A DNA stretch of 63,852 nucleotides from Sminthopsis crassicaudata (taxonomy: Eukaryota). Positions 38,861-43,053 of this stretch are shown here, piece by piece (the stretch's first letter is position 1; each line of letters starts with the position of its first letter). Under the pieces are notes generated by a model. The model was not told where the DNA came from and did no database searches. It saw nothing but the letters and a program-made list of their open reading frames with translations. Position numbers and translations under genes: made by a program. Location of the stretch: the NCBI RefSeq assembly GCF_048593235.1, contig NC_133619.1, positions 14,150,602-14,214,453 on the forward strand, read 5' to 3'.

Positions 38861-39625
38861 GAATAGAATTTAGAATTAGGAGAGATCTTAGAATCCTACA
38901 ACATAGGATGCTAGAGGTAAAAGGGATCAAAGAAATGTTGCAGCCCAAACTACTTGAGGAAACTAAGGCTGATATAATAAAGTGATTTGACAAAGATCAT
39001 GTCAGTAATCAAAGACAGAGCTAGGAATCAATCAGGTCCTCTGACTCTAGAAGAGTGAACCACATATTGAACTATGTTCTACTTCATCACAGAAAGTTGA
39101 CATTTTCATCCTTGCCCAAATACCTGGACTATTGGCTCATTTTACATCTGGTGTGCCGAAGTACAGTTCTGGCTCCTTAGACTCTATGGGATCCAATGAT
39201 CTCTCTTTTGTCTGCCATCTGTGCTACATGATCCACCCCTCATTTTGGCATATGATAGATGGATTCAGTCCCATCTTGCACTCCTGACCTCTCATATGTA
39301 AATCTATCATTTATTCCAGGGACCCTCTAATGTCTCCTGGTTTCTCGTGTCTACATAACACCTTCTAAAAAGTTGATCAAACAGTCTGATTTGCGTAAAG
39401 GATTAGTCAAACAAATGTTTTTGTTAAATATATTGGTCAAATACATCAAGGTTGGTTAATTGGTATAATTCCCACAAAGACACAATCTTATATAGAAAAT
39501 AATTATGTAAAACTAAACTCTAGTGTAGTCAGAACTCTAATCCTAGTCACTGACTCAGATGTATGCTGATGGAGAGGAAGTAAACTCCAAAACATTAATT
39601 CAAGGATGAAACAAGACTTACTCAC

Positions 39626-39676
39626 CACTCAGTTTCCTACTGATGTTACATGTACTAAGCTGTAAATACCGGTGAC
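39626..39676 (-). other. Candidate 51-nt exon
   Basis: Acceptor tttttttccag|G and donor GTG|gtgagtaagt; phase 0 hits a stop, phase 1 is open. Confidence 0.3.
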
Positions 39677-40514
39677 CTGGAAAAAAACCATTGGTACCCT
39701 GAGGGGGCACAGATGGATCATGCTCACATGGTTTCCCTTTCAGGTAGAGTCCAAGATGAAAACATGATATAGCCACACTACTTTCTTATGCAAAGGTTTT
39801 TGTGCATCGCAAGGATGCAGGATCTGGAGAAGCCAACTTTTTTTTTTTTTTTAAGGTGACCAGCCCTGCCCATTTTCTCATCCTGTTTGATTACTTGGCT
39901 TTCCTTTTCTCCCTTACCTTGGAGCAATAACCCTATTTCTTTTCTTCCTTTGATTGTATATTCTAAATGTAATCATAGACTCAGTGAACTTGTCAAGACT
40001 TATAAAACCAAAAGGGATCTTTTTTTACTTTAGTAAAAAAGAAATAAAAATACCTCCTAATATGAATCATGAATATGAATAGTGATAAAGTCATGTAGAT
40101 AGGATATATAGGAAGTAATGCAGGGTATTGGAAGAAGCTTTGTATTTTGCTTCAGGGAGGCCCGTATTCAAGTACTGTGGGGCCATGGCCAAGGCATGTA
40201 TGCCCTGAGTCTCAGTTTCTCCCATCTGTAAAATGTGTATTATACTAATACTACTAATCTCACAAAATTGTTGAGGGATCAAAAGAGATTTTATATGTGA
40301 AGTGCTTGGCAAACCTTAAAACACAATAGGAATGTCAGTTCTAATTAGTTGTTAGTTAATAAGCATTTATTAAGGGCCTGCTATGTTCCAGGAACTGTTC
40401 TAAGCACTAGGGATACAAGAAAGGACAAAGACAGTCCCTACCCATAAAAAGCACACAATTTAATGGGAGAATCAAAAAAGAAACAAATATGGACAAATAA
40501 TCTATAGGTCAGAG

Positions 40515-41065
40515 TGTTAGGTTCTTACTAAGTGCTAAATTAGTACTTAATAATTCTCTAGCTCAGAATTCACACCTTTAGTTCAAACCTTTAAGGGAGT
40601 TTTCACCTTGAAGGAATACTTTAAAGAAGCAAGTTCATTGGTTGAAGGAGTTCCCACAAGCCCCTGCAGTACCCACAAGCCCATTCTCTGGGAGGATAAA
40701 AAGAGGCAACATTGAGTCTGAAGAATAGTCTAGACTGGGACATTGAGTTTCCACGGCAGTCTGGAAGGAGAGAATCAGTCAAGATTGGGATAAGAACAAG
40801 AGCTGGAGGAGATTCAGAACCAGGATTCAGGAAGAAGAAGAGGATTGGAGATTCTACCTTCGCTCTGGCTGGAGGCTCCAGAAGCCTCCCAAGAAACCTG
40901 CTCACAGAGAAAAGGATTCATACAGAGAGAAGGATTTTACAGAAAAGAGACCTCCTCCCAGAGAAAGATTACAATGGAGAGACGATAGGACATTACAATT
41001 TGGCACCCAGCTTGGGGCAAGGACTTATTCTGAGCCCATCAGAGGAGCTAGCCTGGACCTTCACA
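40515..41065 (+). mobile_element. ERV LTR insertion (class II-like) that includes a PBS and short leader
   Basis: TG at 40515, CA at 41064-65, 6-bp TSD TCAGAG at 40509-14 and 41066-71; internal CA at 40996-97 followed by a PBS. Confidence 0.85.
41001..41018 (+). promoter_or_regulatory. Primer-binding site, tRNA-Lys(CUU)-type
   Basis: TGGCACCCAGCTTGGGGC versus canonical TGGCGCCCAACGTGGGGC (15/18), 3 nt after an LTR-like ACA end. Confidence 0.8.
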
Positions 41066-41955
41066 TCAGAGAAATAGGAAATTAATAGACAGATGACCCT
41101 GGAATTAAAAGGAATTTGGAAAGACTTCTTTTGGAAGTTGAAATTTTATTTGAGGTTTTAAGGAAATCAGAAGTGGAGATGAGGAGGGAGAACTTTCCAA
41201 GCATGGGGTTCAGTCAAAAAAAAGTGTCTGGAAGTGAGAGGGAGTGTCTTGTTCAAAGAACAACAAAAATACCAATATCACTGGATCAAAGTGTGTTTGT
41301 GTGTTTTTGGAGGAGGGAGAGGTTAGGAAAGTCTCTGATGTCAAATAGAGGATTTTGTAGTTGATCCTGAAGATGATAGAAACTGGAACTGATAGAAAAC
41401 AAGCTTCCATACTTCCAACTGGAGTATGGCAGTGACATGATGTGACATGGGTTTGAGAAAAATCACTTTGACAGATGAATGGAGGATAGAATGGAATAGG
41501 AAGAGACTTGTCACAGGCAGATCCCCAGTAGTCTATTGTGTGAAGTGATGATAATTATGGAATGAGCTGTCCTTTAAATCTCCTTTAGAAAAATGGTACA
41601 AACTATCACAGTCTTACTATGTCATTTGACTAATAAGATGATCTTTCATGAGGTTTTTCAAGACTCAGAAAAGATAGTATATGAAAGCACTTATGAAAAA
41701 ATTACTCATAGGAAGTCTAGTGCTAAAGTGCTTATATTCACAGCCATCTATAGAATTTCATAGAATAATAGAATTACACAGTTGGAGCAAGTCTTAGCAG
41801 TTATCTAGTTCAACTATTAAGCTAAGTTTGTGTCTTCTAAAGCAATCCTAAACATCTTTTGACTGGACACCCAGTAACGGGCAACTTACTATCCTTAAAG
41901 AAAGCTCATTCCATTTGGGGACAACTTATGTTATATAAAATGAAATGAAATATTT

Positions 41956-42287
41956 TTTTATTTTGTTTTTTATTAATTTTTATAATTATAACATTTTCGT
42001 TGACAGTACATATGCATAGGTAATTTTTTTTTTTTACAACATTATCCTTTGTACTCCCTTCTGTTCCAAATTTTTCCCCTCCTTCCCTCCACCCCCTCCC
42101 GTAGATGGCAGGCATTCCCATACATATTAAATATCTTATAGTATATCCTAGGTACAATATATATGTGCAGAACCGAGTTTTGTTGTTGTTGTTGTTGCAA
42201 AGGAAGACTTGCATTCCAAAGGAAAAATAATCTGGGAAGAAAAACAAAACAAAACAAAACAAAAAACAATGCTCACAGTTTACACTC
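41956..42287 (-). mobile_element. Young L1 3' end with 14-bp TSD
   Basis: TSD gaaatgaaatattt at 41942-41955 and 42288-42301; same subfamily as 50790-50990. Confidence 0.92.
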
Positions 42288-42901
42288 GAAATGAAATATT
42301 TATAAAATATTTTAACACAATACTTGACATATAGTATTTAGTTCAATAAACATTTATTAAGTGCCTACTATGTACCAGGCAACGTACAGTCTTTTCACTC
42401 AAGGAAATTGCATTCCAGTAGGGGGAAGACATTTTACCAAAGTCCAATATCAAAAACTAAATCAATTAAAATGATGATGAGAACACAGTAAAAAACCCCC
42501 AATAATAAATAATAATATAAATAAATGTAATAATATTAATAATTATATTATATATAAATTATAACATATAATATAAATACATATAAATTAAAATAAATTT
42601 AAAAATAAAGTAAGCATTTAATAAATGCTTATTTTCTCCCTCCTTCATATGGCCCCACAGAGGGACTCTGTTGTCTAAAGACCAGCTTAATTTAGTATGC
42701 AAATACCTCTTACCAAAAGGGTAGCTTCAGAGGATGCATTAGTTTTGAAATATGGTGATTACTTAAATCAATTGCTGAAAAAAACTCTTCAGTTCTATGT
42801 GACTCCCTTCAACTTCTGCAGTGACAGTGATTCAATAGCATAAGGATCAGAGCAGGCTAAAAATCAGAAAATCTGTTTACTACCTCGAAGTACCAATTTA
42901 C

Positions 42902-43053
42902 CCATTGGTGCTCTTGACATACAATCTTTTTCCAGTGATCAATGATGGCCCGTGCTTCTGGAGGAACGAAATCACGTTGGTTTTCAAAGTCTTGCCACAA
43001 ATGAAAGTGGAAGAGTAGAAGTTTCCGCCCCATGGAAAAATGGTTCCCAGGTT
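42902..43053 (-). CDS. Candidate coding exon (PGNHFSMGRKLLLFHFHLWQDFENQRDFVPPEARAIIDHWKKIVCQEHQW)
   Basis: Acceptor cccttttgtctttctgaaaag|A, donor TGG|gtaaat, 152 nt with 50 open codons; three of four CpGs fall in Arg codons. Not recognised. Confidence 0.4.

Follow-up and report, generated by a model that had tools for sequence, protein, structure and literature searches.

A probable long-form solo LTR from a family of betaretrovirus-like ERVs with tandem lysine tRNA primer binding sites

The insertion in the window

The window analyzed here is a 63,852-nt stretch of the Sminthopsis crassicaudata genome, and all elements of the insertion described below lie on its + strand. Re-reading of the sequence identified an inserted unit of 551 nt, extending from the TG at 40515 to a second CA dinucleotide, with the 6-bp target site duplication (TSD) TCAGAG on its left (40509..40514) and right (41066..41071) sides. 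The probability of an exact TCAGAG 6-mer occurring by chance at a given place is 2e-4. The LTR body, from TG to the first CA (40515..40997), equals the short-form LTR of a family of relatives 75-93% identical to it, many of which stop at the first CA with a TSD of their own. A GATAAAA motif (40695..40701), assigned by motif scoring and presumably acting as a TATA-like box, was the sole one of the three scored motifs in 52/68 family LTRs.

The first CA (CA1, 40996..40997) is the right integration end of short-form copies, as judged from the TSDs of relatives. It is separated by ATT from a primer binding site (PBS1, 41001..41018) matching the complement of the tRNA-Lys(CUU) 3’ end at 15/18 positions, as scored by eye against the complement of a tRNA-Lys(CTT) gene of the same genome (L277) plus CCA. 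A 47-nt spacer (41019..41065) leads from PBS1 to the second end and, by comparison with relatives, constitutes the U5 end of long-form LTRs. The second CA (CA2, 41064..41065) is the integration end of the window copy; in proviral relatives it is followed by 2-4 nt and a second primer binding site (PBS2) for tRNA-Lys(UUU). The 6-mer behind CA1 is ATTTGG, which does not match TCAGAG.

The insertion interrupts an L2-like host repeat (40300..41500), which we take to be L2 from its motifs. An independent copy of this repeat (L275) aligned to each flank, and the gap between the two alignments was 68 nt, as compared to 69 nt expected if the flanks were contiguous, indicating a clean insertion without loss of host DNA. 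There were zero N bases between 40000 and 41500, an Rfam scan of 39000-43000 returned just two weak matches far under gathering scores, and no further copy of the ERV family was present in the window.

A TG...CA unit bounded by TSDs, with host flanks intact, is what characterizes a solo LTR. A standard solo LTR has no PBS inside, however, and here PBS1 falls within the TSD-bounded unit. The first-pass annotation had described the same order of elements (TSD, TG...CA, ATT, a lysine PBS, 47 nt, CA, TSD), and this proved exact, with the host repeat contiguous across the flanks.

The family and its two integration ends

The genome searched comprised 3.24 Gb in 8 contigs, with sampling mainly from contig C1 and by exact-match patterns. 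An exact 24-mer from the LTR start occurred at no fewer than 5,673 places genome-wide (the start motif sometimes recurs within one LTR), and an exact 24-mer from the spacer at no fewer than 2,328. The ERV family comprises thousands of copies. Among 30 spacer loci fetched, some of them segmental duplicates, a TSD lay behind CA2 in 15 and a second PBS came next in 7, an eighth such call being spurious and left out. Taken together with the 2,328 spacer places, the 15 of 30 suggest that long solos likely number ~1,000 or more. The relative frequency of the two forms was estimated from 47 LTR starts at C1 4-17 Mb, which yielded 18 short solos whose TSD lies at CA1, representing 15 distinct insertions, along with 5 long solos; the first 30 LTR-start loci were excluded because they lie inside the duplicated contig end. 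Short ends prevail by ~3:1 among solos and by a higher ratio among proviruses. As a separate observation, insertions at G000:C1 0.8-5.7 Mb (L066-L095, L187-L190) repeat with identical flanks and represent segmental duplications near the contig end.

The family has a tRNA-Lys primer, 6-bp TSDs, TG...CA ends and a polypurine tract ahead of the 3’ LTR, all of them features of class II ERVs. Seven of eight ORFs from the gag-pro-pol region behind the PBS (L100, L124, L129, L138, L141, L149) matched the Gag_p10, Gag_p24, aspartyl protease, RT, RNase H and integrase Pfam families, and the L149 ORF matched none of these. The best PDB match of the RT was 7sr6 (E 3.8e-65), presumably the HERV-K RT, as compared to about 1e-33 for HIV RTs; a search of viral contigs found no relative of the RT. 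By primer, TSDs and gene content the family is class II, or betaretrovirus-like, and the window unit is its solo LTR. Pfam content, tRNA match and TSDs thereby bear out an assignment that had first been made from the primer and the TSD length. Many copies are ~3 kb, and gag-type frames are the only ones seen there. Paired LTRs of TSD-verified elements are ~87-98% identical, which marks the copies as old and differing in age. Two distinct Gag N-termini (L100, L115, L117 as opposed to L119, L138, L149) were seen behind the same type of LTR and dual-PBS leader.

The class II ERVs of dasyurid marsupials, the MEBrv clades (PMC11334065), are like the window family in having a lysine PBS, 6-bp TSDs, Gag_p10/p24, protease, RT with thumb, RNase H, integrase and abundant solos. 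The LTR lengths of the window family overlap the 373-469 nt given in PMC11334065 for MEBrv. The terms ‘primer binding’, ‘PBS’ and ‘tRNA’ have 0 occurrences in the main text of that paper.

The proviral 5’ end of the family consists of U5 ending in CA1, PBS1 (tRNA-Lys CUU), a spacer of 47-67 nt, CA2, PBS2 (tRNA-Lys UUU), leader and gag. A near-perfect Lys(UUU) PBS was found directly behind the spacer at 112 exact places. A spacer-plus-leader pattern, specifying neither PBS, identified 279 junctions; 60 were fetched from the 100 matches listed (59 from C1 and one from C2 chosen for its odd PBS2), and 58 of these 60 contained both PBSs. A second PBS behind the 5’ LTR, which the first-pass annotation had asked for in full-length copies, is thus present. 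The 47 nt that it had called leader are the spacer between two PBSs and not a packaging leader.

TSDs were used to locate the integration ends. Among 27 distinct non-proviral LTRs containing PBS1 and spacer, a TSD (≤1 mismatch) lay behind CA2 in 22 (17 exact) and behind CA1 in 0, while a cross-pair control gave 8/702 matches. Of the 60 junction elements, 29 had a polypurine tract and a 3’ LTR within 9 kb, and the remaining 31 had no 3’ LTR in reach. Nineteen of the 29 were short-ended with a TSD at CA1 (16 exact), and L120 was long-ended with an exact TSD at CA2. The script used for these calls tested each element with several possible 5’ starts, thereby raising the number of chance matches; its calls for L101 and L144 were discarded on inspection by eye. 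Further exact-TSD cases were L031 (short) and L256 (long), and L120 and L256 are the only 2 proviruses verified to have two long LTRs.

A search for 3’ LTRs at 91-95% identity to L120 scored 40 places, with 34 short and 6 long, L120 counting among the 6. Rechecking 30 of these loci confirmed 6 long and 23 short and left 1 unclassified. Fifteen short-ended 3’ LTR elements were followed upstream: 5 retained the 5’ junction, with both PBSs in 5/5, 4 had lost it, and in 6 there was no 5’ LTR within 10 kb. Among the 5 long 3’ LTRs besides L120, 3 had no 5’ LTR in 10 kb.

These results demonstrate that CA1 and CA2 are both genuine integration ends. It had been suggested that the PBS-bearing unit is a family-wide feature, and the 22/27 PBS1-and-spacer solos ending at CA2 agree with this. 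The related proposal that PBS and leader were absorbed into an extended U5 holds for long solos, which carry the PBS, and fails as a description of all copies, with 15 short as compared to 5 long solo insertions. TSDs lie behind CA2 in 22 of the 27 PBS-bearing solos but behind CA1 in short solos and 19 proviruses, and both LTRs are long in 2 proviruses. CA2 is a regular end placed 2-4 nt ahead of PBS2, rather than the cryptic end first envisaged.

Primer tRNA copies and spacer pairing

Copies of the primer tRNAs joined to family LTRs were collected with patterns for each tRNA. The Lys(UUU) pattern gave 29 matches, comprising 8 tRNA genes that lack CCA and 21 copies that bear it, and all 21 of the latter sit at CA2, behind the spacer end (9 placed by script; 12 reassigned by eye, 11 of them with a shorter spacer variant and 1 a chimera). 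A PBS lay upstream of the Lys(UUU) copy in 20/21, the one in L287 being Lys(UUU)-like. The Lys(CUU) pattern gave 46 CCA-bearing matches; of 30 fetched, 27 were at CA1 (25 scored and 2 by eye), 1 was at CA2 and 2 were outside the family. The most plausible reading of these tRNA-LTR chimeras is that plus-strand synthesis continued into the primer while it was still attached, which places each tRNA at its own site, CUU at CA1 and UUU at CA2.

The copies differ in length. Lys(CUU) copies extend to tRNA positions 1-14 in 24/30, and Lys(UUU) copies end at positions 37-48 in 19/21. tRNA-Lys(UUU) has a bulky modification near position 37, which fits the stop observed there. Passages of a study of HIV-1 (PMC8599865) describe plus-strand synthesis that can pass m1A58 (position 58) into the primer tRNA; compared to that read-through, the products seen here have become fixed germ-line sequences that record the tRNA used at each site. 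Behind PBS2, the short-ended L110 and L111 have a scar resembling Lys(UUU), which points to PBS2 priming in an ancestor.

Error forms were also present. Eleven matches were obtained, 9 of them spacer-deleted forms with a single PBS1 and 2 with PBS2 rewritten to Lys(CUU), and one CA1-Lys(UUU)-leader form was found. Single-PBS deletions and a rewritten PBS2 are errors to be expected where two similar PBSs lie in tandem. Near-whole or whole CCA-bearing tRNA-Lys(CUU) copies joined to LTR ends were seen at L276, L278-L283 and L313-L342. ARAGORN calls several of these LTR-fused copies tRNA genes, and tRNA gene counts in the genome may therefore be inflated by ERV by-products. In L294, L315 and L320 the spacer is replaced by a full tRNA-Lys(CUU) copy that rejoins the element at the tRNA-5’-end box just before CA2/PBS2; these forms likely arose by strand transfer via homology to the tRNA 5’ end.

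This box lies at 41045..41056 in the window copy, where an energy computation predicts pairing with nt 1-12 of tRNA-Lys(CUU) at -21.5 kcal/mol, a value equally low in 3/1000 shuffles. Across 58 spacers the pairing with the tRNA-Lys(CUU) 5’ end had a z of -3.3, taken from related copies and as the best of 20 windows. An overlapping stretch of the window copy (41051..41063) is predicted to pair with nt 41-55 of tRNA-Lys(UUU) at -23.2 kcal/mol (2/1000 shuffles); family-wide this pairing is weaker, with z of -1.9 for nt 41-54 and -2.5 for nt 46-59. Pairing of the spacer with the tRNA-Lys(CUU) 5’ end may aid priming, or it may be incidental. The spacer was also considered as a decayed copy of a whole tRNA, a possibility that went unsupported: the Lys(CUU) windows at nt 1-14 and, weakly, nt 31-44 were the only ones to beat shuffles.

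Proposed alternative priming and competing explanations

Judged from sequence, the window unit is very probably a long-form solo LTR of a dual-PBS betaretrovirus-like ERV family, likely derived from reverse transcription primed at PBS2. Copying likely started at either primer site, such that one RNA with two alternative primers gave two LTR lengths; this would explain both the short LTRs and the long LTRs with a PBS inside. By analogy with standard retroviral reverse transcription, the position at which the primer starts would set the right end of the DNA. Priming by tRNA-Lys(CUU) at PBS1 would yield a short LTR and leave spacer and PBS2 in the leader, whereas priming by tRNA-Lys(UUU) at PBS2 would copy PBS1 and spacer into both LTRs. 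Integrase would then join the DNA at CA1 or CA2 with a 6-bp TSD. Provided that polyadenylation occurs upstream of CA1, short- and long-LTR proviruses would give identical RNA, since the 5’ sequence is the same in both, and the choice of primer would be renewed every cycle. Recombination between the LTRs of a PBS2-primed provirus would leave a TSD-bounded solo containing PBS1, as in the window copy.

The main reason for caution about this dual-primer reading is the sequence of PBS1 itself. Priming at PBS1 should recopy PBS1 from the tRNA, and a tRNA-corrected PBS1 was therefore predicted in short-ended proviruses. This prediction failed: 17/19 TSD-verified short-ended proviruses retain a PBS1 with a 1-2-nt insertion (p=0.0007 vs 50%, the copies being related and non-independent), which speaks against dual priming. 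A tRNA gene or read-through copy containing the insertion variant gave 0 matches, as compared to 69 for the plain T-arm motif, which speaks against the insertion having been copied from a variant tRNA. To explain its retention, repair would have to be strongly biased toward the strand templated by RNA. That just 2 two-LTR long proviruses could be verified likewise weighs against dual priming.

The same observation favors a different explanation, in which PBS2 is the normal site, PBS1 priming is an occasional error and short ends arise by another route, for example from co-packaged single-PBS templates or by trimming of the long end to CA1. Single-PBS relatives do exist. They are scarce, however, with 9 and 1 exact matches against 279 spacer-bearing junctions (the patterns differ in stringency), and trimming meets the difficulty that we know of no integrase that cuts ~70 nt inside a DNA end. 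Short ends are moreover the majority, and Lys(CUU) read-through copies at CA1 match or exceed Lys(UUU) copies at CA2 in frequency. We consider this explanation unlikely.

A tree was built from LTR bodies only, using 45 solos with exact TSDs (18 long, 27 short). Dropped from the 68 solos called automatically were 21 with a 1-mismatch TSD, L077 (a 5’ LTR) and L341 (a chimera). End type switches 12 times on the tree, as compared to 14.3 times for shuffled labels, and at least 6 of the switches are forced by starred branches. Monophyly of the long solos was rejected (AU test, p 1.4e-9), and the row closest to the window copy belongs to a short solo. One starred clade consists of 4 long solos. End type does not track with subfamily; long and short copies are intermixed.

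This bears on the possibility that PBS and leader were absorbed into U5 once, in a separate lineage of long LTRs. Long solos are family-wide and TSD-bounded, and the clade of 4 would fit such a lineage, but the tree contains no clade of the long copies and the same spacer and PBS2 occur in short-ended proviruses, leaving a single absorption very improbable. It is no more credible that long solos are minimal non-autonomous elements copying themselves via the internal PBS, as had also been proposed, even though they contain a PBS and related gag-only proviruses of ~3 kb are common. A lone LTR has neither the downstream polypurine tract nor the second repeat needed for strand transfer. TRIM-like elements have two terminal repeats around a PBS and polypurine tract and form a lineage of their own; the long solos have a single LTR and no separate lineage on the tree. 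A one-off event has nothing in its favor beyond this single locus. Whether taken as the use of a cryptic CA in integration or as a 5’ LTR truncated by deletion next to a chance 6-bp match, such an event can be dismissed with near certainty given the identical end in 22/27 solos, the contiguous host flanks and PBS2 behind CA2 at 112 exact places.

Retroviruses are assumed to initiate at a single site that fixes a single LTR end. In the window family, two sites appear to have been used on a large scale in a natural germ line. Voronin and Pathak (2004) reportedly placed two PBSs on one RNA in engineered HIV-1 vectors, with initiation at both according to the title. Those vectors are artificial, whereas the window family is natural and has two different lysine tRNAs, each with its own CA end, and its tandem PBS persists in several subfamilies and through thousands of insertions in the germ line. 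Ty1 and Ty3 have an extended or bipartite PBS with pairings between U5 and tRNA arms; these extra tRNA-pairing boxes resemble the boxes in the spacer, although Ty1 and Ty3 are understood to have one initiation site and one LTR length. Drosophila Gypsy is a natural retroelement with two tRNA-Lys2 sites, at the 5’ and 3’ ends of its genome, of which only the 5’ site is needed for cDNA synthesis (PMC1635307). It shares two tRNA-binding sites with the window family but has no second LTR length. PMC12220202 describes a different phenomenon.

No precedent for a natural tandem-PBS ERV with two LTR lengths was found in the literature searched, which mostly excluded subscription journals, and Repbase/Dfam may already hold both lengths. 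A natural dual-PBS ERV of this kind appears new and is well supported at the level of sequence, while two-PBS initiation itself is known from engineering. One RNA giving rise to two LTR lengths would break assumptions made in LTR-end annotation, provirus dating and subfamily splitting. The family also provides a large fossil record in which to study primer choice, errors of strand transfer, mismatch repair at the PBS and stops at tRNA modifications.

More tentatively, the tandem PBS could be a selected two-primer switch by which the lineage hedges between two lysine tRNAs, with the spacer anchoring other parts of the primers and supplying the second integrase end, the arrangement being kept though single-site deletions arise readily. 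We regard such selection as conceivable but rather doubtful. If true, its by-product would be ~1,000 PBS-bearing solo LTRs that are possible targets of PBS-targeting repressors or tRNA fragments. Many solo LTRs of the family do retain PBS-Lys, a motif that silencing zinc-finger proteins of mouse and human bind (PMC8931336).

Several unusual forms were seen among the copies. In L040, L041, L049, L118, L148, L150, L151, L154, L155 and L257 the spacer is tandemly duplicated, which creates a third CA end that no PBS follows. In L041, L046, L052, L054 and L059 the LTR and PBS2 are followed by unrelated sequence and the leader is absent; these are possibly integrated strong-stop DNA. Finally, L204, L208 and L214 (G000:C1 10.4-13.6 Mb), and similarly L093 and L144, are elements of ~290-580 nt with the left (U3) end of the LTR inverted at both termini and exact 6-bp TSDs. 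These inverted-U3 elements are integrated DNA with two U3 ends.
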